This document shows positions 1 to 49,804 of a DNA stretch of 49,804 bases, piece after piece (the first letter of the stretch is position 1; each line of letters opens with the position of its first letter). The position numbers and the translations under genes were made by a program. The stretch comes from a virus. Lineage: Duplodnaviria; Heunggongvirae; Uroviricota; Caudoviricetes. The notes beneath the pieces are model-generated. The model was not told where the DNA came from. It ran no database searches and saw only the letters and a list, made by a program, of their open reading frames with translations. The stretch covers positions 1 through 49,804 of IMG/VR virus record IMGVR_UViG_2579779034_000011; one strand, given 5' to 3'.

Positions 1-861
1 ATGGTTGACAATGTTTTTAAGAAGAAATTGGCATCAATTAAGAACGAACATGTGTCGGTGTTAGATAGTTACAAAGTAAGATCATTTAAAGAGACTCATA
101 GCGACACGGCCTGTATTGTGCGTATTATTGAAATATATTCACTGAATAAGCTGCGAGCTAAAGGTGAAAAGCTGTATTCACTTACGGGGTTAACAGTACC
201 TGATACGGAAACTGTGGCGAATGAGATCAACCTGCTCCTGAGCCGTTATGCCCAGTTGTGTCGTCAGGAAGAGGAAGAGTTATCTTTCCGGCAGCGTGAA
301 GTGACAAATGCGGAAGTTGCATGGAAAAGCACATTCTCAAAAAACGGCGTCAGTAGCATTGCTGAAGCCAAAACGAATAAAATGGGGCATGCTGAACGAG
401 CGGATGCTGAACGGTATTACCATCTGGCTGTTTCCCGGTTGAATGAACAACATAGTCGATTGAGCACGATCAAGCTTTTGCCGGGAGTACTGGCCGATGA
501 AGGAAACTACATTGGGAAGGGAATCGATAAGCGTTTACTGAATATATTTCCTCAATCCGGCCAGATCCCTGCTGATTTTATTTCTGTATTTAATGACAGT
601 GACGTTGTCCGTGATATTAAATTTATTACTGATGCACTCAAGTCTTTATCTGATTCCGTGAGTGAAATTATTAGTCGTTGTAGCGTTCCAACTGATCGTT
701 ATGTATTAAATAACGGTGGAATGGCAAGAGCTATGGCTTACAGGGAGTACTATCGAGCAGATAATTATGTATTACGTTCAGTCGTAAGTGACCGGGATTA
801 TGTTGAGCATGTAATGAAATACAATCTGGTTACTGAGTACAAAAATAAAATCTTTTCTTAA
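1..861 (+). CDS. hypothetical protein, possible scaffold-like partner of the downstream capsid gene (5' end may be cut by the window edge)
   Basis: 286-codon ORF beginning at window position 1; co-oriented with and 22 bp upstream of a P2-family capsid-like gene; no motif recognised. Confidence 0.45.
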   Translation: MVDNVFKKKLASIKNEHVSVLDSYKVRSFKETHSDTACIVRIIEIYSLNKLRAKGEKLYSLTGLTVPDTETVANEINLLLSRYAQLCRQEEEELSFRQREVTNAEVAWKSTFSKNGVSSIAEAKTNKMGHAERADAERYYHLAVSRLNEQHSRLSTIKLLPGVLADEGNYIGKGIDKRLLNIFPQSGQIPADFISVFNDSDVVRDIKFITDALKSLSDSVSEIISRCSVPTDRYVLNNGGMARAMAYREYYRADNYVLRSVVSDRDYVEHVMKYNLVTEYKNKIFS

Positions 862-883
862 ATACTTAAAAAGGTGAAAAACT

Positions 884-1888
884 ATGTATGCCTTCAAAAC
901 TGAAAGGCCGGACGCAGCACGTCGTTATCATAATAAATTCGTCACTGGCACTAACTATCAGGAAGAATCAAACAGACGCTTTGCATTAAGCGAACCTACT
1001 GAAAATATACTGCGTACCTCAATTCTGGAATCCGGGTGGCTTATTAAAAATATTACCCTACGTGATGTTAACGCCGTGTCAGGTAATGCCGTCAATATTG
1101 GTGCCAGTGAACTGTATACCGGACGTGTGGATGGTGGCCGTTTCCACAAAAAAATGGCAATCAATGGTACGGAGTTCTTTCTGACAGAGACGGATACCTG
1201 CGCCCGGATCAGCTATTCCGATATGTCTCATATTTACCATACCGGCGTGCCGGATGAGTTTGAGAAAACGGTTGAGAGCTTTTTTGCCCAGGCATATGCG
1301 CTGGACATGCTGCGGGTCGGTTTCAACGGTGTGTCGATTGCAAATACTACAAACCCGGAAATCAATAAAAAAGGCGAGGATGTCAATATTGGCTGGCATG
1401 CACTGGCGAAAGCCTACGGGAACGGAAAGCAAATCATCTCTGAGCCTGTCACTCTGGGAGAGACTGGCACCTGGAAAAATATTGATGCTCTGGCCAACCA
1501 TCTGATTACAGAGCTTATTGCTGAGCAGTTTCGTGAAGATCCTCGTCTGGTTGTACTGGTTGGGGCAGAGCTGGCAGCACATCAACGCCTGAAGTTATTT
1601 AATGCCGCAGACCGCCCGTCTGATGTGAATGCGGCACAGATGGCTACAAGTTCTGTTGCTGGCCGCTTTGCGTTTATTCCCCCGTTTATGCCGGGTAAGC
1701 GTCTGGCAGTAACGACGCTGGATAATCTGCATATTTACACTCAGGCGATAACACGCTGGTTTCGTGCTGAGTTTGATGATGAAAGCAGTGAATACGTGCA
1801 TTCCTACCTGCGCAATGAAGGTTATGCACTCGGTGAACCTGAACTGTACGCGGCTGTTGATGAGTGCACCCTGACGTTTGCGGATTGA
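884..1888 (+). CDS. P2-family (gpN-like) major capsid protein
   Basis: 334 aa; blocks LDMLRVGFNGV, VNIGW, FREDPRLVVLVGAELAA, TLDNLHIYTQ and C-terminal YAAVDEC resemble P2 gpN as I recall it; RBS-like AAAGGTGAAAA upstream. Confidence 0.6.
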   Translation: MYAFKTERPDAARRYHNKFVTGTNYQEESNRRFALSEPTENILRTSILESGWLIKNITLRDVNAVSGNAVNIGASELYTGRVDGGRFHKKMAINGTEFFLTETDTCARISYSDMSHIYHTGVPDEFEKTVESFFAQAYALDMLRVGFNGVSIANTTNPEINKKGEDVNIGWHALAKAYGNGKQIISEPVTLGETGTWKNIDALANHLITELIAEQFREDPRLVVLVGAELAAHQRLKLFNAADRPSDVNAAQMATSSVAGRFAFIPPFMPGKRLAVTTLDNLHIYTQAITRWFRAEFDDESSEYVHSYLRNEGYALGEPELYAAVDECTLTFAD

Positions 1889-1901
1889 CTTAGCGACAGA
1901 A

Positions 1902-1923
1902 AGACCCGCTCAGAGGCGGGTCT
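1902..1923 (+). terminator. hairpin after the capsid-like gene (terminator-like)
   Basis: inverted repeat AGACCCGC/GCGGGTCT 14 bp after the stop codon, followed by a weak T tract. Confidence 0.4.
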
Positions 1924-2085
1924 CGTTTACAGCATCAGGAAAAATGAAGAACTATTTTTAAGCAGAGGCTTAAGCATGCCAGCGTTAATTAATCCAGGCA
2001 ATGATCAGTTTTCGGTTATAAATTTCTTGCCTCACCAGGAATGCGCGGGATATAGTTTAAAGGTTGCCGCAAAATCGGCAGCCGG

Positions 2086-2111
2086 GCGTAGGAACCCGTG
2101 TTATCTGAAGG
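2086..2111 (+). promoter_or_regulatory. seqA-like box of a P4-type RNA immunity leader
   Basis: GTAGGAAC...TCTGAAGG; both blocks are complementary to the box at 2262..2288 on the same strand. Confidence 0.4.
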
Positions 2112-2261
2112 CGATACTACACGCGCTAGGCGTGTTTTTTTGTGTCGCAGCTTTGACTCACCTAAAATTTATGGTGTGGTGGCTGATTGTATTTTTTTAT
2201 TTTTTACGCCACATCATCAGAATTATGGTAGTCCAGGCGGGGCAGCTTTCGGGCTGGCCGG

Positions 2262-2288
2262 TATCCTTCAGAGCCGGTATTCCTACCC
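2262..2288 (+). ncRNA. candidate CI-RNA-like immunity RNA core (seqB-like); RNA ends not determinable
   Basis: CCTTCAGA...TTCCTAC is the reverse complement of both blocks in the upstream and downstream boxes. Confidence 0.35.
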
Positions 2289-2310
2289 CCGTCTGGGCTA
2301 CCACCCATGA

Positions 2311-2351
2311 GCGTAGGAACTCCGGTGGTAGCGTTACCCGCTATCTGAAGG
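2311..2351 (+). promoter_or_regulatory. seqC-like box overlapping the RBS of the first gene of the primase operon
   Basis: GTAGGAAC...TCTGAAGG repeated; the TCTGAAGGAGG segment contains the Shine-Dalgarno of the ORF starting at 2363. Confidence 0.4.
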
Positions 2352-2362
2352 AGGTTGCCATT

Positions 2363-2566
2363 ATGGCTACAGTCCCTGCTTTATCTCACCCTGAATTTAC
2401 CTTTGTCTTTCTGGCTGTCCGCCGTACAGACCGTGATGCCCGTCCACGCCCTGTGCGTGTAATCGCAGAATGCGAGCATGCTGCACGCCTTAAACTTGCC
2501 ACTGAATTTATCCTGAGCTTTGCTGCCCGTATCCCTGTGAAAAGAGCCGGGGAGGTGGTTGCATGA
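2363..2566 (+). CDS. hypothetical protein (first gene of the primase operon)
   Basis: 67 aa; GGAGG 8 nt upstream of ATG; stop overlaps the next start (ATGA). Confidence 0.5.
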   Translation: MATVPALSHPEFTFVFLAVRRTDRDARPRPVRVIAECEHAARLKLATEFILSFAARIPVKRAGEVVA

Positions 2567-2799
2567 AATCCATGAATTTTAAGCAAGGCTGCATATTGAG
2601 TGAACAGGGGGAGAGTCGTCTGTTACGGGCGGCACTGGCCAGTGAGTTTCTTGCAGAGGTCTTGTCCGTGCCCACAGTGAATGGAGCGAGAACTGTTTCA
2701 GCGGAAGGCGCTGCGGCTTTAGTGGCCTGTATTGCCGAACAACTGGATGGCGTTGTTAAGGAAACCAGCACAATTAAGGGAGTGATGCGCGATGAATAA
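2563..2799 (+). CDS. hypothetical protein
   Basis: 78 aa; start and stop overlap the neighbouring genes (translational coupling). Confidence 0.55.
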   Translation: MKSMNFKQGCILSEQGESRLLRAALASEFLAEVLSVPTVNGARTVSAEGAAALVACIAEQLDGVVKETSTIKGVMRDE

Positions 2800-3202
2800 T
2801 AATCAAAATTTAAAGGCGCATGCTTTACGAACAGCAGTCTTACGCTACTACATTGCTGATGCATTCATTTCCTTAATGGTGCGTGTTCATAATGAACCTG
2901 TTTATATTGAAGATGGCGAACGAATAGAACTCTCCCACGAAAAAGTGGTGAGTAATATTATTTACCATATTGAAATGCCGTGGGTGAATGAGTTTGGGGC
3001 TGATGCTGGTTGCATACTGGCCGCAGAGAAACTGGAAAAAATGCTTAAACCAGGCTTTATGTCAGAAAATATTCGCCTGTCAGTTTTTGGTGTCACAGAG
3101 ATGCGTGAGGTTTACCGGGATATTATTTTCGGAGCACCTGATGGCGAACTACCCGAAGGTTTTGAATTTGTGAAGCCGGAAGGTCAGGAGGTGCTGCTGT
3201 GA
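2792..3202 (+). CDS. hypothetical protein
   Basis: 136 aa; 8-bp overlap upstream, 4-bp overlap with the primase start. Confidence 0.6.
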   Translation: MNNNQNLKAHALRTAVLRYYIADAFISLMVRVHNEPVYIEDGERIELSHEKVVSNIIYHIEMPWVNEFGADAGCILAAEKLEKMLKPGFMSENIRLSVFGVTEMREVYRDIIFGAPDGELPEGFEFVKPEGQEVLL

Positions 3203-5886
3203 AAACACCGTCTGTATCCACGATTTCCGGAGCTGCAATTGGGCGCTGGCCTTATATCCTGTCAGCATTAGGTATTAAAGTACCGTCCGCAGGACATCAT
3301 GGGGCTTGCCCTGCCTGTGGTGGAAAAGATCGTTTTCGACTGGACGATAAAGCGGGGCGAGGGACGTGGTTTTGTAATCAGTGCGGTCATGGCGATGGTC
3401 TTGATCTGGTTCGTCTGGTGACAGGAAGAAAGATAAAAGAAGTCGCCGGGATGGTATCTGAGGCGCTTGCATTACCAGAAATACAGGAGAAGCCCGCATT
3501 GCCAGCCAGGAAAAAGGCCGCAGGAAAAGAAGCGGGCGCGGAGCGATATACCAGACTCAGACAGCAGTCCTGCAATGGTGAGCCGGTCTATCTGACAAAT
3601 AAGAGCTTACACGGGTATTCACTTCCCTTGCTGTCACAGCCTTTGAATCTGGCCGGAATAACATTTTCCACCGGTTCATTACTGCTGCCTTTGACGGATA
3701 TTTCCGGGAATATTACTGGTGGCCAGCTTATCAATCCTGACGGGGATAAAAGTCTGCTGCCCGGTAGCCAGCTGTCTGGCGCATTCATTGCCCTGACCGA
3801 TATACCCGCTGAAACACCTGAACAGGTGATTATCACTGAGGGTTTTGCCACGGCGCTTACCGTCAGTCTGCTGACTGAAGGATGGATCGTGGCGGCTGTC
3901 GCTGCCACCAATTTACTGAAGGTGACGGAGCAGATCCGAAAACGCTGGCCGGAAACCCGGATCATTCTGGCCGGAGATAATGATCTGGCTGACGGCAAAG
4001 AAAACACCGGGCGTATTCAGGCAGAGAAAGCCGCCAAAGCGGTGGATGGCTGGGTAACGCTCCCTCCGGTACGCCATAAGGCTGACTGGGATGATTATCG
4101 GCAGGAAGTGGGGAAAGAACGGGCGAGAGATGCCTTTCGTGAAGAAATGACGCTGCATGGCAAAGGGCAGACCCGTTTACCAGAAGGGTTCCGGCTGACA
4201 AAAGAATATTTGTGGTACGACAAGCTGGTTAATAAGTCTGATGGTGATACAGAGATACGTAATATCAAAATTTGCAGTCCGTTGCGGGTGACGGCAATCA
4301 CCAGTGATGCTGATGGAAGTAATTACGGGCGTTTGCTGGAATGGGAAGATACCAACGGAAACAGCCGTAAATGGGCAATGCCGATGGAGATGCTGGGCGG
4401 TAGCGGGGAAGAACTGCGCCGCGTTCTGCTGGTTAACGGGCTTTCTTACATCAACATTAACGGCATGGCCAGAGCATTCCTGATGGAATATATCTCGCTG
4501 TGTAAACCGGACAGAAAAGTAACCTGTGTGAATAAAACTGGCTGGCACGGCGGGGTTTACGTTCTCCAGGATGAAGTGATAGGGCGCGAAGCCCAGTCAG
4601 TCATCTTACAAACATCGAGTGTGCAGGGGCGTGATTTTCGTGTCAGCGGCACATCAGAGGGCTGGCGTGAAAATATAGGCCGTTATTGCATAAAGAATGC
4701 CCGTCTTGCCTTTGCGGTGAGTCTGGCATTTGCTGCCCCCCTTCTGAAACTGGTTGGTATCGGCGGTGGAGGTTATCACCTCAAAGGGGAATCCACAGAC
4801 GGTAAAACCACGACGATGAAAGTGGCTGCATCAGTATGTGGTGGAACAGATTTCTGGCATACGTGGCGGGCGACGGGGAATGCCTTAGAAGGAACGGCGA
4901 GCCGCCGCAATGATGCCACGCTGATGCTGGATGAAATCCGGGAGGTTGACGGCAGGGAGGCGGGAAATATCGCTTATATGCTGGCTAACGGGCAGGGCAA
5001 AGCCAGAGCCAGAACAGATGGTTCGGTAAGGGAAACCAACCGCTGGAATCTGTTGTTTCTGTCTACCGGGGAACTGTCACTGGTAGAGCATGCGGCAAGC
5101 GCCGGGGAACGTACGTATGCCGGGGTTGAGGTCAGAATGATCCAGATCCCAAGCGATTCGGGCAAGTATGGCGTGTTTGAAGAACTTCATGGCTTCAGTA
5201 GCGGGAAAACCCTGGCTGAGCATCTTGAGCAGCACGTAGCGCATTATCATGGTGCACCATTCCGCGACTGGCTGTATTGCCTGACCGCTGATCTGCCGGA
5301 ACTGACCAGTCAGGCGAAAGCCTTATTGAAAGAGTATACCCGAAGGCTGACGCCGGAAAATGCCGGGAATCAGGTTGGCCGGGCTGTTACCCGTTTTGCT
5401 CTGGTTGCGATGGCCGGGGAGCTGGCCACAAAAGCGGGCATCACAGGATGGCCGGAGGGAGAGGCCTTTCGTGCCGCTCAAAGCTGTCTGGCTGCATGGA
5501 TGGCTGACCGGGGCCATACAGCTAATCAGGAAGATAAAGCGGCACTTGAACAGGTTCGGGACTTCATGACGCGTAATCAGTTCAGTCGGTTTGCTGACTG
5601 GAATGACGACAGGAACCGGCCTGTTTCAATGATGGGATTCAGAAAAGTCGATAAAGGAGACAACGTGACAGAGCCGGTTGTGACGTTCTACGTTCTCCCG
5701 TCAGGCTGGAAGGAGATCTGTAAGGGATTTGACTCGCGTAAGGTGGCCAGGTTGTGTGTGGACGCGGGCTGGCTGAAACCCGGTGAAGATGGCCGGACGC
5801 AAAACAGCATTCGCCTGCCAGAAATAGGGCTTAAACGTGTGTACCAGTTCAATACACAGGTACTGGGAAGCGCTGAACCTGAGTGA
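3199..5886 (+). CDS. P4 alpha-like primase-helicase (Zn ribbon + TOPRIM primase + P-loop NTPase)
   Basis: 895 aa; CPACGG...CNQCGH zinc ribbon; EGFATA primase motif; DND acidic motif; Walker A GESTDGKTT; Walker B LMLDEI. Confidence 0.85.
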   Translation: MKTPSVSTISGAAIGRWPYILSALGIKVPSAGHHGACPACGGKDRFRLDDKAGRGTWFCNQCGHGDGLDLVRLVTGRKIKEVAGMVSEALALPEIQEKPALPARKKAAGKEAGAERYTRLRQQSCNGEPVYLTNKSLHGYSLPLLSQPLNLAGITFSTGSLLLPLTDISGNITGGQLINPDGDKSLLPGSQLSGAFIALTDIPAETPEQVIITEGFATALTVSLLTEGWIVAAVAATNLLKVTEQIRKRWPETRIILAGDNDLADGKENTGRIQAEKAAKAVDGWVTLPPVRHKADWDDYRQEVGKERARDAFREEMTLHGKGQTRLPEGFRLTKEYLWYDKLVNKSDGDTEIRNIKICSPLRVTAITSDADGSNYGRLLEWEDTNGNSRKWAMPMEMLGGSGEELRRVLLVNGLSYININGMARAFLMEYISLCKPDRKVTCVNKTGWHGGVYVLQDEVIGREAQSVILQTSSVQGRDFRVSGTSEGWRENIGRYCIKNARLAFAVSLAFAAPLLKLVGIGGGGYHLKGESTDGKTTTMKVAASVCGGTDFWHTWRATGNALEGTASRRNDATLMLDEIREVDGREAGNIAYMLANGQGKARARTDGSVRETNRWNLLFLSTGELSLVEHAASAGERTYAGVEVRMIQIPSDSGKYGVFEELHGFSSGKTLAEHLEQHVAHYHGAPFRDWLYCLTADLPELTSQAKALLKEYTRRLTPENAGNQVGRAVTRFALVAMAGELATKAGITGWPEGEAFRAAQSCLAAWMADRGHTANQEDKAALEQVRDFMTRNQFSRFADWNDDRNRPVSMMGFRKVDKGDNVTEPVVTFYVLPSGWKEICKGFDSRKVARLCVDAGWLKPGEDGRTQNSIRLPEIGLKRVYQFNTQVLGSAEPE

Positions 5887-5911
5887 TTATCGCGTGAGTC
5901 TTATTTTTATG

Positions 5912-6105
5912 AGGTAACACTGGTAACAGAGGTAACACCCGTTACTGATGCGGTTCTTCAGTGTTACCAGTCAAAAATACTGACTGGTAACAGAGGTAAC
6001 AAAAAATGGTGTGTTACCACGCGTTACCTCTTGATTTTGCTAACTGGTAACAGATTAAATCCTTTTAAATCAATAGCGTTACACGTGTTACCAGTGTTAC
6101 ACGTT
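5912..6105. repeat. iteron array, probable origin of replication of the P4-like element
   Basis: about 12 copies of heptamer GGTAACA/TGTTACC in both orientations, including an 18-bp direct repeat CTGGTAACAGAGGTAACA twice; immediately downstream of the primase-helicase gene. Confidence 0.6.
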
Positions 6106-6168
6106 CAGAACAAGAGGTAGGGATCCAAATCCCTTCTTCTGGCGGGCAACAGTATAGGGCACAGAACG

Positions 6169-6441
6169 ATGAAGATGATGAGAATGTACTGCCCCACATG
6201 TCAGGCAGTAGCACGGATAGGTAAAACAAACAGGAAACACCCACAACTGTACGATGTGTACTGCTATTGCTCTAATGTGGAGTGCGGTCACTCGTTTGTG
6301 ATGAATGTTGCTTTCTCCCATTCCGTTAGTCCAAGCGCGCTGAACGGGCAGGGAAGGGTTAAAGAGCTGATTGATGCAATTCCACCCGAGGAACGGGAAA
6401 AGGCTTTAAAGTTGCTGCTGGCTGCGCAAAAGAATGGGTAA
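6169..6441 (+). CDS. Ogr/Delta-family zinc-finger late-gene activator (start may be an internal Met at 6178 or 6187)
   Basis: C-x2-C-x22-C-x4-C spacing (CPTC ... CSNVEC) matching P2 Ogr CPLC ... CQNVNC. Confidence 0.65.
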   Translation: MKMMRMYCPTCQAVARIGKTNRKHPQLYDVYCYCSNVECGHSFVMNVAFSHSVSPSALNGQGRVKELIDAIPPEEREKALKLLLAAQKNG

Positions 6442-7120
6442 AGTATGCGTCGGGAATGGCCGATCTGTTCCCGGAACCTGAACACAGGATTTCAGTTTAT
6501 ACGGTCATAAAATTATTATTTTTCAACTGGTTATCTTCTTCATGTTTCACAAACCTTCATAAAATCACACACCTAAAATTAATTATCCATTTAATATCAT
6601 AGAGTTGCGTATTCAGGCCATAGATTCGACGGACAGTAAAACTGAAAAAAAATGAATTTCTTTTCATTCTTTTCAGTTCCTGTATCGCAGTACATCTCGA
6701 GGACTGGCACGGACTGGCGGTATCGTTTGTAAAAAATCCAGGCTGAAAATTTTTAGTGATATGAAAACCGCAGGCGGGTGCGGTGTAGTGCCGTTTTGGT
6801 CTGTCGAGCGTATATTTTCCTTTTTCACGATTGCTGCATATCAAAACGAATGTGCAGATATCAGGCCGTGTCAAACCGTGAATCGTGGAGCCTAAATGCC
6901 CAAACTACGTTTGTAGACCTAGCTAGGGGAAGGTTTCCACATATACTGCTACCTATCTTCCAGTCGCTGGTGAGGATCAAGGTAAGCTAACTGGTGAACA
7001 AGAAAAGTACTTTCGTATCTTGCGTACTCGTTTTTTTTGATTAGTATGTACAGGTAGTAACTGGATGGTGAGAATTCGTCATAACTTATCAAATTGCATG
7101 ATGTTTATAGAGTATGAGTA

Positions 7121-8002
7121 ATGAGTCATAATAAAAAGGAATATGCTAAATTTTTCCGTCGCCCCATTTTTTCATCCTTAGCAAAAGGTAAGGATATTTC
7201 GGATTTATTTGGGAGTTTTGATTCTTACTGCTATGAAACACTGTTTTCAAACAATGATAATAATGAACATGAGATTTCACTAAGGGATTTATTTACATCA
7301 TTATATGATTTTTTGCGTCTGAATTATAGAAATGAATATGTTTATAAGACAGCACTTGTCAATAAAATAATATTCGGTAAGCACAGCCCAAAAACAAGTT
7401 CGTCGTCCATAGAGTTACCAATTAAAAACTCTATAGTGGATGTTGCGGTGTTTAATGGTACGTCTACAGCTTACGAGATTAAGACAGAGTATGATTCACC
7501 AAAAAGGTTGATTACTCAAGCCCCTGATTATTTGGATGTTTTTGATAAAGTGTATATAGTTACACATCCAGAGTATGCAAGTAAATATTGTGCTTTAAAT
7601 CTCCCCAGAGTGGGAGTTATGGTTTTGAATAAAAAAGATCAATTGAGTGTCATTAAGGAGGCAGATTCAAATATTGATTATATTAAAAGTGACAGCTTGT
7701 TTTCAGTTCTTAGAAAGGAAGAGTTCTTAGCTATAATAGAAGATTACACTTCAACTAAAATAAATATGCCTAACGGATTGGTTTATGAATATTGTAAAGA
7801 GATATTCATGCAGATGCCATTAAACATAGCAAATAAATACTTTATCTCTGCTATGAAAAAAAGATGTAACGATAAAGTTTTTTTGGATTATATTTATTCT
7901 CTTCCAGCATGTTTACGTGTTTTAGGTTATGCAACACCATTATCAAGAAAGCAAAAAGAATTCATCATGAATTTGATGGATGTAAAAATTAAAATTTGTT
8001 GA
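7121..8002 (+). CDS. hypothetical protein, AT-rich cargo gene A; PD-(D/E)xK nuclease-like motif
   Basis: 293 aa; strongly AT-rich relative to flanks; acidic/Lys pattern E72 ... D107 (IVDVAVF) ... E119-I-K121 (AYEIKTE). Confidence 0.6.
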   Translation: MSHNKKEYAKFFRRPIFSSLAKGKDISDLFGSFDSYCYETLFSNNDNNEHEISLRDLFTSLYDFLRLNYRNEYVYKTALVNKIIFGKHSPKTSSSSIELPIKNSIVDVAVFNGTSTAYEIKTEYDSPKRLITQAPDYLDVFDKVYIVTHPEYASKYCALNLPRVGVMVLNKKDQLSVIKEADSNIDYIKSDSLFSVLRKEEFLAIIEDYTSTKINMPNGLVYEYCKEIFMQMPLNIANKYFISAMKKRCNDKVFLDYIYSLPACLRVLGYATPLSRKQKEFIMNLMDVKIKIC

Positions 8003-8023
8003 TATCCTCAGGAGTTGTAAGTT

Positions 8024-8974
8024 ATGTATAGCCCATATTTGTATGCGAGAAGTACAGAGTTATTATGCCTTAGGGACCTCGTTGCGAAGGGAGTTAGCCT
8101 AAATGGTCTGCTACCAATTTTAGAACCAATTAACGTCAATACGAGAAATTTATTAACATGTTTAAATGTTTGGAATTCTGACATAATTGTTATCCTTAAT
8201 CCTTATCAGGAAGATTTTTCTTCACACAATAACGTCTTAACTTTAAATCAAAATTTATCAAGTGTATTAACAAATAAAAATAATATCATCTCTGGATATC
8301 TTATTCAGCCCAATACAACGATTAATGATATTAATAATTGGTTGAATGCTAACTTAAATAGACGAGTTGCACTTCTATATGATAATCCATCATTATCCAA
8401 CTCTGATATTCAGTTGTTGGCGACAAATCAATTGATTAGTTATCATGTTGTTTTAAATAATAAAATGCTTCCTAATCAGTGCGCTCTTCTTCCTTTGTCG
8501 AAGTTAATTATTATTAGCGATAACTTTAGAAAGTTAGCAAAAAATGCTGATTATAATGGGCCGGAACTTTTCACGCACGCACATCAATTCGTGGGACAAA
8601 ATTACTTAGGATTTGGCGATTATACAATTACTGGCCAGGTACTAGATCTTGGAGGTGGTCAACCTTCTGCTGTTGCCGCACATTTGGTGTTCAAGAATTT
8701 ACAAGCGAATACAGTTTGGATTCGTCATTTTGTATCAAGCAACACGCAACGAGGAAGTTCAAATGTTACTGCAAAATTTTTAGATGTTTCAGATCAAATT
8801 ACAAATCTTGTTCCCCAACATCCAACCCAGTTTGGCAGCAACATTGGTCTTAACTATTATTATTACAATAGTCAACCAACTGTAAGGCATTTCCCTGGGT
8901 TGCCAAAAAACAAACAGTATCAAATTACTCACCATATTTGTTTCATGCTGGATTTAATAGCAGGTCGTATTTAA
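8024..8974 (+). CDS. hypothetical protein, AT-rich cargo gene B
   Basis: 316 aa; 21 bp downstream of gene A, same strand and composition; last 7 codons overlap the integrase 3' end on the opposite strand; no motif recognised. Confidence 0.6.
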   Translation: MYSPYLYARSTELLCLRDLVAKGVSLNGLLPILEPINVNTRNLLTCLNVWNSDIIVILNPYQEDFSSHNNVLTLNQNLSSVLTNKNNIISGYLIQPNTTINDINNWLNANLNRRVALLYDNPSLSNSDIQLLATNQLISYHVVLNNKMLPNQCALLPLSKLIIISDNFRKLAKNADYNGPELFTHAHQFVGQNYLGFGDYTITGQVLDLGGGQPSAVAAHLVFKNLQANTVWIRHFVSSNTQRGSSNVTAKFLDVSDQITNLVPQHPTQFGSNIGLNYYYYNSQPTVRHFPGLPKNKQYQITHHICFMLDLIAGRI

Positions 8975-10129
8975 TAAGCTAGCGTACCATTCCATCATTA
9001 CTTGTCGATCTTTAATATATTGCGCATGATTGTAAGTACCTCGAATAGAGTTCTTATCAACATGCGCAAGCTGCATTTCAATCCAGGCACTTTCAAACCC
9101 ATGCTCATGCAAGATGGTGCTCATGGTATGCCTGAAACCGTGACCCGTTAACCGACCGTGATAACCCAGTAGTTTTATCACTTTGTTGATGCTGGCTTCG
9201 CTCATTGGTTTACTGACGTCATTCCGGCCAGGGAAAACGAGGCTGTAATTCCCTGTTATTTCTTGCAGCTTTTTCAGGATATTGATCGCCTGAGTTGATA
9301 ACGGAACCAGATGGGGGCGGCGTTTCTTCATCCGTTCTTTGGGGATCTCCCATAAGGCATTATCTAAATCAAACTCAGCCCATTCCGCTGCACGTAGTTC
9401 AATTGTTCGCACGCCTGTTAGCATCAACAGCTGCGTGGCGTATTTGGTAACTAAACTGCCCTGATAGTTATCCAGAGCATTAACGAACTCGGGCAACTCG
9501 CTTTCAGTCAGGAACGGGAAGTGTTGGGTTTTAGGTTTGTTGAGTGCGATAGCTAAATCGGGTGCAAAATTATACTTTGCTCTACCAGTGGCAACAGCAT
9601 AACGAAGCACTTCACCACAGCGGCGGCGGATCTTACTGGTTTGCTCTAGCGCACCTCTTTTCTCTATTTTTTGCAGGACGGTTAGCAGTTCTAATGGTTC
9701 AATCTGCTCAATTGGGCGCTGGCCGATAAAAGGAAAAATATCCTTTTCCATACAATTGAGAACCTCTTTTGCATAACCCTCTGACCAGGTGGCTTTTTTC
9801 GATGAGTGCCATTCTCTGGCCACAGACTCAAAGCTGTTCTCATGCGCGAACTGCAAAGCAATCTTATCTGCTTTTCTGGCTTCACTTGGGTTTATCCCGT
9901 TGGCTAACATCGAACGCGCTTCATCACGTTTGGTACGTGCCTGTGCCAACGACACATCGCCATATACGCCAAAGGAAATCATCTTAGGCTTACCTGCAAA
10001 GCGATAGCGAAAACGCCAGCCTTTACTGCCCGCTGTGTCGATCAGGAGTGATAGCCCCATACCATCGTTAAGCGTATAGGGTTTGTCCTTCGGTTTTGCT
10101 CTTTTTATTTGGATGTCAGATAGCAGCAT
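8954..10129 (-). CDS. int: tyrosine integrase, P4-type (start taken at MLLSDIQIK; ORF extends to 10177)
   Basis: N-terminal KPKDKPY arm-binding motif; C-terminal HGFRHT ... LAH ... RGTYNHAQY catalytic region. Confidence 0.9.
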   Translation of the reverse strand: MLLSDIQIKRAKPKDKPYTLNDGMGLSLLIDTAGSKGWRFRYRFAGKPKMISFGVYGDVSLAQARTKRDEARSMLANGINPSEARKADKIALQFAHENSFESVAREWHSSKKATWSEGYAKEVLNCMEKDIFPFIGQRPIEQIEPLELLTVLQKIEKRGALEQTSKIRRRCGEVLRYAVATGRAKYNFAPDLAIALNKPKTQHFPFLTESELPEFVNALDNYQGSLVTKYATQLLMLTGVRTIELRAAEWAEFDLDNALWEIPKERMKKRRPHLVPLSTQAINILKKLQEITGNYSLVFPGRNDVSKPMSEASINKVIKLLGYHGRLTGHGFRHTMSTILHEHGFESAWIEMQLAHVDKNSIRGTYNHAQYIKDRQVMMEWYASLLNTTCY

Positions 10130-10377
10130 GTGTATAGAAAAAAGATCGAACTCAGTTATACACAATGTTATACGCAAAGATGTATAGATTCCATTAGAAA
10201 TAATGGTACTTTGCTGGACGAGTATAAGGAGATGATATCAGTTAAAACAGTGAGTTATGGAATTAATTGAACTTAGTGAGAAGTGTTCATGGTGTCCCCT
10301 GCAGACATCTACTTCAAGCGGCAGGGGATTGATTGGAATGGTGTTTTTTAGATGTGAAAAATATTTTACCCGCTATT

Positions 10378-24342: not shown

Positions 24343-24417
24343 GGGTCAGTCGTATAAAGGTCATTACGGAAGGCTGTTAACCTTCTTATCGTGGTTCGAG
24401 TCCACGCTGTCCCGCCA
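24343..24417 (+). tRNA. tRNA-Asn-like (anticodon GUU), possibly degenerate
   Basis: hand-folded cloverleaf: perfect anticodon stem GAAGG/CCTTC with loop CTGTTAA, perfect T arm CGTGG-TTCGAGT-CCACG, 3' CCA; one mismatch each in acceptor and D stems. Confidence 0.55.
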
Positions 24418-24422
24418 AATAT

Positions 24423-24498
24423 GCTGGTTTAGCTCCAATGGTAGAGCAGTCGCCTTGTAAGCGAATGGGTAGCGGTTCAAGTCCGTTAACCAGCACCA
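24423..24498 (+). tRNA. tRNA-Thr (anticodon UGU)
   Basis: hand-folded cloverleaf: 7-bp acceptor GCTGGTT/AACCAGC, D stem GCTC/GAGC, anticodon loop CTTGTAA, T loop TTCAAGT, 3' ACCA. Confidence 0.7.
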
Positions 24499-48646: not shown

Positions 48647-49804
48647 TCACTCCACCTTTTCATCAAGCCAGTCCGCCCACCATTGCATCATTTCTCTGCG
48701 CTTATCGAGATACTGAGCATGGTTGTAAATTCCACGTACAGATCCGCCGTTGGCATGTGCCAGTTGCACTTCAATGGCGTCGGCAGGCCATTCGTGCTCG
48801 TTCATAATCGTGCTGAATTCATGCCTGAATCCGTGACCGCTTTCCAGCCCCTCATAGCCGATTTGTTTGATCACAAGCAATACCGCGTTCTCGCAGATTG
48901 GTTTCTTCTTATCGTTGCGCCCGGCAAAAACAAACTCTGAGACTGGTTTGGTGATTGAGCTTAGTGTAGTAAGAAGTTCAACCACCTGGTCTGACATAGG
49001 AACCACATGAATTTTGCGTCCCTTCATCACACTGGCGTCGATGGTGATAATCCTGTTTTCAAAATCGACGTTCTTCCATTGCATGGAGCGAAGCTCTTTC
49101 GTTCTTAGGGCTGTGTAGCGTAAAACTTTGGTCGCAATGAGCGATACGATACTTCCTGAAAATGTTGCCAGTGCTTTGTTGAATGCCGGGATCTGGTCTG
49201 CAGGAAGAAACGGGAAGTTCTTCTTGCGGTATCCCTTCATGGCGTCAGCAAGGTCAGGTGCCGGGTTATATTTAGCCCTACCAGTAACAATAGCGTAACG
49301 AAAAACCTCGCCGCATCTTCTGCGGGCTTTGTTGGCTCGCTCCATTGCACCGCGATCTTCAAATCTGCGGATTACTTCCAGCAGTTGCATCGGCTCAATA
49401 TCCTGAATCTCAAGACCGCCGATGATGGGTAAAATGTCGTCATCAAACATTTTGGCAAGTTCAGTTGCATAGCCTACTGACCAGACTTGCTTCTTGTGCT
49501 CGTACCATTCCTTGTAAATCGCACTAAATGAATTGTTGTTAGACGAAGCCTTTTTCGCCTTTACCGGATCGATGCCAACCGAGATGTCTTTCCTCGCAGT
49601 CCATGCCTTATCCCTTGCTTCCTGCAAAGTCATAAGCGGATATTTTCCGACGGTCAGGATTTTCTCCTTACCGTCAATCTTGTAGCGAAGCTGCCATACC
49701 TTTTTCCCTGACACAGGGACATAAAGGTACAGGCCATTACCATCGAGAAGGCGGTATGGTTTTTCTTTTGGCTTTGCTGCTTCAATCTGCTTAACGGTGA
49801 GCAT
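48647..49804 (-). CDS. int: tyrosine integrase, P4-type (second copy; start codon at window edge)
   Basis: 385 aa; MLTVKQIEAAKPKEKPYRL arm-binding N-terminus; HGFRHEFST ... LAH ... RGIYNHAQY catalytic region. Confidence 0.9.
   Translation of the reverse strand: MLTVKQIEAAKPKEKPYRLLDGNGLYLYVPVSGKKVWQLRYKIDGKEKILTVGKYPLMTLQEARDKAWTARKDISVGIDPVKAKKASSNNNSFSAIYKEWYEHKKQVWSVGYATELAKMFDDDILPIIGGLEIQDIEPMQLLEVIRRFEDRGAMERANKARRRCGEVFRYAIVTGRAKYNPAPDLADAMKGYRKKNFPFLPADQIPAFNKALATFSGSIVSLIATKVLRYTALRTKELRSMQWKNVDFENRIITIDASVMKGRKIHVVPMSDQVVELLTTLSSITKPVSEFVFAGRNDKKKPICENAVLLVIKQIGYEGLESGHGFRHEFSTIMNEHEWPADAIEVQLAHANGGSVRGIYNHAQYLDKRREMMQWWADWLDEKVE

Follow-up and report, generated by a model that had tools for sequence, protein, structure and literature searches.

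Most of an 11.0-kb satellite element lies at the left end of the DNA analysed here (the window: 49,804 nucleotides, IMG/VR virus record IMGVR_UViG_2579779034_000011), and it joins a P4-type immunity and replication core to a P2-family major capsid gene that is kept under selection. P4 is the textbook example of capsid-size piracy, and Sid and Psu are treated as defining its family. In the element described here neither was recognisable, and their place is taken by a gpN-type capsid gene and an orphan gene directly 5' of it (the partner). With a probability of roughly 0.6, we read this region as an intact satellite whose capsid protein and partner replace Sid and Psu and would yield small capsids, the helper phage supplying the rest. 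A first-pass annotation of positions 1-6441 had recognised the P4-like character of the element and had offered two possibilities, a satellite that makes its own capsid or a P2/P4 hybrid. Regarding the former, a shell protein and the partner are indeed encoded, but no portal or terminase (distant relatives add a gpO protease domain); the latter, understood as an autonomous phage, did not hold, since gene annotation and Pfam searches found no portal, terminase, tail or lysis genes within the 11.0-kb element.

The boundaries of the element were defined in Escherichia coli AR_0089 (locus L001), which matches window positions 1-6441 at 100% identity. There the satellite is integrated at the argW tRNA-Arg gene, between dsdC and the tRNA, and a 20-bp direct repeat, ATGGTGTCCCCTGCAGGAAT, representing the tRNA 3' end, is found at both of its ends, 10,989 bp apart. 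The window itself is E. coli DNA and begins at exactly the first codon of the partner gene, with about 710 bp of the element (the attachment site attL and alpA) lying to the left of its position 1. The complete gene order is attL, alpA, partner, capsid gene, promoter and RNA immunity leader, icd-like gene, two small open reading frames (ORFs), primase-helicase gene, iterons, ogr, cos, variable cargo, int and attR; past position 6441 the element thus continues through cos (6641-6818), a cargo gene pair (7121..8974) and the integrase gene (8954..10177, minus strand) to the att core (10289-10304). Extension to the left, suggested by the first-pass annotation, for which a full P2-like prophage on that side would have counted against the satellite reading, gave alpA (L001 14756..14983; 75 aa; PF05930, E=5e-20; 46% identity to P4 ORF88/Vis by tblastn), non-coding DNA, attL and then the host gene dsdC, and the leftward DNA of Klebsiella, Yersinia and Providencia loci was likewise without further phage genes. 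Because the left flank holds only alpA and attL, the element is a complete small island and a decayed P2 prophage is excluded. Nine att-delimited elements measured 10.93-11.83 kb, although their cargo varies and two integration modules occur; this is about 37% of the size of ESSI-2-like phage genomes (28.8-30.9 kb), near the P4:P2 ratio.

The capsid gene (884..1888, plus strand) encodes a 334-aa homologue of the P2-family major capsid protein, in agreement with the first-pass reading. Pfam Phage_cap_P2 (PF05125) matched it with E=9.5e-67 and 225.8 bits (cut-off 27) over profile positions 16-326 of 327, phrog_70 (major head protein) matched with 1.8e-86, and RefSeq names the gene "P2 family phage major capsid protein". 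The score against the equivalog model TIGR01551 (capsid protein) was 204.6, below the cut-off of 219.65, which fits a diverged paralogue. Structure prediction with AlphaFold2 (mean predicted local distance difference test score, pLDDT, 82.8) supported the HK97 fold: the top Foldseek match was gpN in the P4 procapsid (7jw1; E=7.8e-25, template modelling score 0.69-0.77), and the phiRSA1 capsid (7oz4) was also matched by fold and, like 7jw1, by sequence. At the protein level this homologue was 48% identical to the capsid protein of Cronobacter phage ESSI-2 versus 23% to P2 gpN. Satellite and helper-lineage capsid proteins aligned over their full length at 44-50% identity, with 50-80% identity among the satellite copies and 76-82% among the phage copies. 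In the tree the satellite proteins formed a single clade, sister to those of ESSI-2-like phages, and the Yersinia satellite copy shared 57% identity with other satellite copies but 48% with a Yersinia phage from the ESSI-2-like group. Since the satellite copies form one clade and the Yersinia copy sides with the satellites, the sequences indicate that the capsid gene was captured once, long ago, and has since been inherited within satellites.

The partner gene (1..861, plus strand) encodes a 286-aa, all-alpha orphan protein and is a candidate scaffold or size-determining factor. It is a real, conserved gene: its homologues formed 105 clusters in Enterobacteriaceae (43-95% identity), and remoter ones were found by profile search in Salmonella, Yersinia, Providencia and Xenorhabdus (hhalign probability 99-100%), all of them unannotated. 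No family in Pfam, PHROG, NCBIfam or PADLOC covered the partner, and neither it nor the capsid protein matched PADLOC defence families. A search of genome contigs with the partner profile returned 10 loci, too few for a census. Sid has been described as entirely alpha-helical and elongated, and the all-helical, elongated form predicted for the partner resembles internal or external scaffolds of this kind, a resemblance of shape and not evidence of kinship.

Adjacency of the partner and capsid genes was observed in 17 of 17 loci from three families of Enterobacterales (Escherichia, Klebsiella, Citrobacter, Enterobacter, Franconibacter, Kosakonia, Phytobacter, Salmonella, Yersinia and Providencia), with both ORFs intact. 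Where the contig was long enough, these loci shared the order AlpA, partner, capsid, Ash/Icd, small ORFs, primase-DUF927 protein of about 895 aa, Ogr, cos and cargo, with the integrase at either end. The ratios of nonsynonymous to synonymous substitution (dN/dS) were 0.06-0.12 for the capsid gene, about 0.13 for the partner and 0.04-0.08 for the replication gene, synonymous sites being saturated between members; by these estimates the partner-capsid module is a conserved core under purifying selection. Moreover, in Yersinia ruckeri (L012 11011-11532) and Providencia (L013 11017-11550) an ORF of 173-177 aa directly 3' of the capsid gene amounts to no more than the protease domain found at the gpO N-terminus, the scaffolding C-terminus being absent; in Yersinia it shares 52% identity with residues 1-139 of phage YenM_324 gpO. 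This gene is absent from the E. coli element, and none of the relatives examined encodes a portal or terminase; its occurrence in distant members fits a capsid-building role for the module. In a sub-lineage from Franconibacter, Citrobacter, Enterobacter, Phytobacter and others (L010, L018, L020, L022-L024 and L026), another integrase, about 60% identical, is encoded ahead of the capsid module at the left end, and the att core is TCCTATTA(C/T)CGGCACCA. These differences in integrase and att core show that int modules have been exchanged while the remainder of the element stayed collinear. The Salmonella relative also carries a gene with a "Derepression" domain.

The helper is probably not P2 but an ESSI-2-like peduovirus (Seongnamvirus, Quadragintavirus, Tresduoquattuorvirus), as judged from three sequence comparisons: an identical cos core, an Ogr protein that is 50% identical, and a capsid protein that is 48% identical to that of ESSI-2. 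This assignment narrows down the P2-like helper mentioned at first pass. The cos region (6641..6818, plus strand; core GCGGGTGCGGTGTAGTGCC at 6774-6792) lies within the 680 bp that separate ogr from the cargo, and among 50,697 phage records this segment matched ESSI-2-like peduoviruses only. The ESSI-2 record starts and ends with one and the same 15-mer, GCGGGTGCGGTGTAG, which is the signature of filled-in cohesive ends; when these ends were joined, they were identical to the satellite across CAGGCGGGTGCGGTGTAGTGCCGTTTT and showed 77% identity over the preceding 150 nt. All 13 related elements that extend far enough carried the 15-mer, exact and at the same place downstream of ogr, among them those of Salmonella, Yersinia and Providencia, in which protein identity to the window is down to 26-58%. 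The cos 19-mer occurred in more than 120 IMG/VR contigs; in 64 of the 80 that were examined, many of them of about 30 kb, it stood beside a homologue of ESSI-2 gp01 (the position of the ESSI-2 genome end), and nine others were satellites. Two further candidates were rejected. A P2/P4-type cos was not present, blastn against P4 having matched the immunity region only, and the second prophage in the window could not be the helper, being P22-like (P22 portal, coat and tailspike).

In the mechanism that we propose, a C4-type RNA processed from the leader would hold the early operon off during quiescence, as in P4 and P1. Infection by, or induction of, an ESSI-2-like P2-family phage would lead to excision through Int and AlpA, after which the satellite's own primase-helicase would replicate it from the iterons and the helper-type Ogr would cross-activate late genes. 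The helper terminase would then cut and package the satellite at a cos whose core is identical to its own, into small shells (probably with triangulation number T=4) sized for 11 kb, whose formation the satellite capsid protein and the 286-aa helical partner would direct. The shell could take two forms, one built of satellite capsid protein only, with the partner as scaffold or size determinant, and one in which satellite and helper capsid proteins co-assemble. The helper would be left to provide the portal, terminase, head completion proteins and tails and, for the E. coli form, the maturation protease as well. Gene identities, element boundaries, cos identity with the phage group, family-wide synteny, purifying selection and the narrow size range are established by the sequences, and the induction route, the protein content of the particles and the formation of small capsids are inferred. 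We favour the all-satellite shell over the mixed one, given that distant members encode a maturation protease domain of their own as well. More tentatively, and with less than even confidence, we suggest that these elements represent a distinct, widespread satellite family of Enterobacterales, intermediate between P4 (no head genes) and the capsid-forming phage-inducible chromosomal islands (cf-PICIs; all head genes), which would build a whole small shell from its own capsid protein, use an orphan helical protein as a new size-determining scaffold, and take portal, terminase and tail from ESSI-2-like peduoviruses. If true, this would be a third, independently evolved answer to capsid size control in the P2/P4 world.

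Several observations weigh against small-shell formation by the capsid-partner pair, or against parts of the scheme. The partner has no detectable sequence or fold likeness to Sid, Psu, gpO or any scaffold: its profile gave hhalign probabilities of 0.3% for Sid and 0.3% for Psu, Sid was not among its fold matches, and a role as scaffold or size determinant is suggested only by position, conservation and a helical, elongated shape. Of 5426 complete E. coli genomes, only 44-134 had ESSI-2-like packaging genes, compared with 446 carrying the satellite, and most carriers thus seem to be without a resident helper and would depend on outside infection. The strict P2 Ogr-binding motif TGT-N12-ACA was found upstream of the alpA-partner-capsid operon in E. 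coli only, and not in six other loci, leaving late-type control of this module without support from a conserved Ogr box. The E. coli island EcCICFT073 carries a capsid-like gene that was tested for interference with phage lambda only, and it uses full-size capsids (Fillol-Salom et al.); a capsid homologue need not, therefore, imply size redirection. Finally, both the element and its relatives are known from sequence alone.

The alternative closest to our reading differs from it in the composition of the shell. The satellite protein might occupy specific positions (for example, the pentamers) among helper subunits and thereby bias assembly towards a small T number, the partner acting as a chaperone or external brace. 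Such an arrangement has a precedent in the SaPIbov5 capsid homologue Ccm, which sits at the pentamers of T=4 procapsids, and the 44-50% identity and full-length alignment with the helper-lineage protein could permit co-assembly. However, the gpO-type protease domain of distant members suits an autonomous shell better, and the satellite capsid proteins have diverged further from one another than the phage ones, which would be unexpected if tight co-assembly were needed; on balance we regard a mixed shell as rather unlikely. A role in interference only, with capsid homologue and partner poisoning or diverting helper assembly (as host defence or in competition) and the satellite travelling as multimers in normal helper heads, appears improbable to us. 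Satellites commonly interfere with their helpers, defence-type cargo is present on the same element, and the capsid-like and decoration genes of EcCICFT073, an island that uses full-size capsids, have been tested as candidates for interference with lambda (Fillol-Salom et al.). Yet the range of 10.9-11.8 kb despite variable cargo argues for a constraint by unit-length packaging, three copies (33-35 kb) would exceed the helper genome (29-31 kb), and the module is universal and fixed beside alpA, resembling a life-cycle gene more than swappable cargo.

The two remaining explanations concern the integrity of the element. The capsid gene is phage-derived, stands at one end of the element and bears a plain P2-family capsid label in RefSeq, as might be expected if it and its neighbour were non-functional leftovers of a P2-like prophage that had recombined with a P4-like island. 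This is very improbable in view of the intact ORFs and constant order in all 17 loci, the dN/dS values of 0.06-0.13 despite saturated synonymous sites, the separate clade of satellite capsid proteins, the absence of other morphogenesis remnants, and the att repeats that bound the element precisely. Likewise, the window starts at the first codon of the partner and hides the left flank, where the remaining virion genes of an autonomous P2/P4 hybrid phage could have lain; we give this idea next to no credence, as the E. coli genome with the 100% match has only alpA, attL and then dsdC at that position, and the Klebsiella, Yersinia and Providencia loci are similar.

The preferred reading, that of an intact satellite using its own capsid-partner pair, places the element beside several known systems. 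In SatelliteFinder, P4-like satellites (Moura de Sousa & Rocha) are defined by seven components (int, psu, delta, sid, alpA, epsilon and alpha), of which no more than two may be missing. Int and AlpA are present in our element, alpha and delta are only partly equivalent, and sid, psu and epsilon are missing; because three of the seven components are missing, the element falls outside the P4-like family as so defined. In tblastn searches with every P4 protein, matches were limited to the alpha primase domain, Int, Vis/AlpA and a cII fragment; the best E values were 3.5 for Sid and 0.54 for Psu, in line with the first-pass statement that neither is recognisable, and 0.018 for epsilon, on the wrong strand inside the capsid gene. 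Nonetheless, the element shares with P4 a size of about 11 kb, a tRNA integration site, a P4-type integrase (40% identity), Vis/AlpA (46%), a C4/CI RNA leader, an Icd/Ash-like ORF, a DUF5375-type small ORF before the replication gene, an alpha-type primase domain (38%), iterons, an Ogr/Delta-family activator, a cos beside an int-flanked variable defence hotspot, and a helper predicted to belong to the Peduoviridae. It differs from P4 in having no sid, psu or epsilon, in carrying a capsid homologue with its orphan partner, in its ESSI-2-type cos and DUF927 helicase, and in a single-domain Ogr closest to the helper's own, as opposed to the two-domain Delta of P4; moreover, ogr follows the alpha-type gene in the same orientation, whereas P4 has a divergent sid-delta-psu operon.

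Capsid homologues in satellites are already known (SaPIbov5 Ccm, PmCI172, EcCICFT073 and the cf-PICIs), and the principle is not new. In SaPIbov5 of Staphylococcus aureus, Ccm is a capsid homologue located at pentamers that gives T=4 capsids. Like SaPIbov5, our element, known here from its genes, would be a cos-packaged satellite with its own, diverged version of the HK97-fold capsid protein of its helper; unlike it, it belongs to another lineage, host and helper (that of SaPIbov5 is a siphovirus with a prolate head, which Ccm changes to isometric), and SaPIbov5 has no counterpart of the 286-aa partner. The cf-PICIs encode capsid, protease, portal, head-tail connectors and small terminase subunit, with or without the large one, and take only tails. 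Our element resembles them as an enterobacterial int-alpA-primase island with its own HK97-fold capsid protein and helper dependence otherwise, but it has only the shell protein and partner (with a protease domain in distant relatives), would need the cos-specific terminase of its helper, and has a P2-family capsid protein; none of the cf-PICI head set (portal, protease, head-tail connectors, small terminase) was found in the 11.0 kb. The genomic features of Gram-negative PICIs (int, alpA, a primase gene with a 3' origin, att repeats, a size of 10-15 kb, and no lysis or tail genes) are all present. Two such islands, EcCICFT073 and PmCI172, have capsid-like genes, PmCI172 making small heads and EcCICFT073 redirecting packaging into full-size heads. 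They share with our element int, alpA, a replication gene with the origin directly 3', the 10-15 kb size and helper cos packaging (predicted from cos in our case), yet they use lambdoid or Mu-like helpers and are without P4-type RNA immunity, Ogr or a P2-family capsid protein. In the literature accessible to us, with many subscription journals outside its coverage, we came across no account of P4-type satellites with a capsid gene of the P2 family, of the partner family, or of any satellite of ESSI-2-like phages.

Seen against P4, the element would represent a different answer on the same type of chassis, in which Sid and Psu are dropped, a diverged helper capsid gene and a helical protein are employed instead, and a little-studied P2-like branch is targeted. 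It bears on whether, in a P2-type system, the shell protein of a satellite can determine how large the capsid becomes, and coliphages of the ESSI-2 group have already been isolated and sequenced. Current tools probably miss such elements or file them as generic PICIs, since three of the seven P4-like components are absent and at most two absences are allowed. The variable slot, which holds a retron-like reverse transcriptase (RT) with SLATT, Kiwa or the sce7725/7726 pair, also makes the family relevant to the mapping of defence islands and gene transfer.

Downstream of the capsid gene, the alpA-partner-capsid operon is closed by a G+C-rich hairpin (1902..1923, plus strand; 9-bp stem, free energy -17.5 kcal/mol, z = -2.63). 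The first-pass annotation had taken this for a terminator; the hairpin stands, but its U-tract (CGUUUAC) is weak and a terminator scan did not report it. The immunity region follows, with about 80% DNA identity (blastn) to the P4 cI region, and here the earlier proposal of a P4-type RNA-immunity leader was borne out. A sigma-70-like promoter (2027..2056, plus strand; TTGCCT-18-TATAGT), identified by consensus match only, would be the analogue of P4 P_LE. It precedes a leader RNA (2050..2140, plus strand) that comprises c4-a1b1 target elements, an isrK-like RNA and an intrinsic terminator at 2119-2135, according to Rfam and the terminator scan; Rfam isrK scored 68.9 bits at 2063-2140 (threshold 50) and c4-a1b1 43.8 bits, just under its threshold of 46.7. 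The C4-type antisense RNA, counterpart of the P4 CI immunity RNA, lies at 2221..2308 on the plus strand (Rfam RF01695, 81.1 bits, threshold 45). An Ash/Icd-like ORF is annotated across these RNAs (1976..2566, plus strand; 196 aa; PF10554, 3e-32), with an Icd-like domain (NF033153, residues 141-188) confined to its C-terminal part (about 2396-2539), while its 5' part overlaps the isrK-like and C4 RNAs. It is probably over-extended in RefSeq, the true start lying 3' of the RNA genes, for instance at the ATG near 2363. Two small early genes (2563..3202, plus strand; 78 and 136 aa; phrog_38507 and phrog_5991) occupy the position of P4 epsilon, orf151 and orf106. The Klebsiella counterpart of the 136-aa gene is annotated as DUF5375 (L008, L010), as is P4 orf106; no alignment was obtained between the 78-aa product and P4 epsilon.

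The replication gene (3199..5886, plus strand; 895 aa) encodes a P4-alpha-type zinc-ribbon/Toprim primase fused to a DUF927 helicase (Pfam Zn_Ribbon_Prim, Toprim_3 and DUF927) and is 71-89% identical across the family at the protein level. The first-pass description of an alpha-like primase-helicase held for the primase but not for the helicase: likeness to P4 alpha (38% identity over 321 aa) is confined to residues 1-317, the N-terminal primase domain, and the C-terminal 580 aa are DUF927, a different helicase family that did not align with P4 alpha. The putative origin is an iteron cluster directly 3' of this gene (5913..6092, both orientations), as had been predicted. Nine of the 14 copies of GGTAACA in the window fall within these 180 bp, with 3.98 expected in the entire window, and the repeat families D1, D4 and I1-I18 are found in the same region. 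The anticipated Ogr/Delta-type activator was confirmed as a single-domain, Ogr-type late-gene activator (6169..6441, plus strand; 90-aa zinc finger; PF04606, E=5e-14), with 50% identity to the ESSI-2 Ogr-like gp32 (E=1e-35) and 21% to P4 Delta.

A TATTCACCA-like motif recurs as two or three direct repeats some 150 bp upstream of alpA (L001 14585-14625, with equivalent positions in L006, L008 and L012). After it come a TTCAAA-N-TTTGAAT palindrome and a promoter-like block, and the whole arrangement is conserved from E. coli to Yersinia. These repeats may be Int arm-type sites or binding sites for AlpA or the activator. The motif also resembles the P4 type-I ori repeat, TGTTCACC. Just inside attL, E. 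coli AR_0089 has a (CCCAGC)x7 microsatellite (L001 14441-14482, about 520-560 bp to the left of window position 1).

Between cos and int, the variable hotspot of the window holds a pair of sce7726-family and sce7725-family genes (7121..8974, plus strand; NCBIfam) of low GC content (0.31-0.34). The sce7726 protein matched PADLOC "cll" (1.2e-18) and showed a weak likeness, 39% identity over 61 aa, to P4 cII, whose RefSeq name is also sce7726 family; the pair is a candidate for defence cargo. Other members carry in the same slot RT and SLATT_5, Kiwa KwaA/KwaB, a DprA-like protein with a hydrolase, or HATPase_c_3. The P4-int-type tyrosine integrase (8954..10177, minus strand; Arm-DNA-bind_3, Phage_int_M and Phage_integrase) is 40% identical to P4 Int (5e-92, tblastn). 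The att core that follows (10289..10304, plus strand), representing the 3' end of argW tRNA-Arg, is a hybrid junction with a second prophage, the window diverging after CTGCAG. Beyond the junction at 10304/10305, a P22-like prophage, likewise inserted at argW and forming a tandem with the satellite, fills positions 10305-49804. It has a Rad52-type recombinase, an S24 CI-like repressor, genes for tRNA-Asn and tRNA-Thr (24343-24498), a T4-type large terminase, P22 portal and coat proteins, a tailspike whose head-binding domain is that of P22, and an integrase of its own (48647..49804, minus strand).

Among the 5426 complete E. coli genomes, 421 contained window positions 1-6441 at 99% identity or more, the 446 satellite carriers being those with at least 80% coverage of this segment, and the strain names of many of the best-matching genomes suggest clinical isolates of sequence type 131. 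Some chromosomal copies of the segment are interrupted by IS1A or ISEc23. Beside the 446 near-full-length chromosomal copies, plasmids gave 892 partial matches to the segment at 80-90% identity, and the portion matched may be the immunity RNA/icd region or the primase gene.

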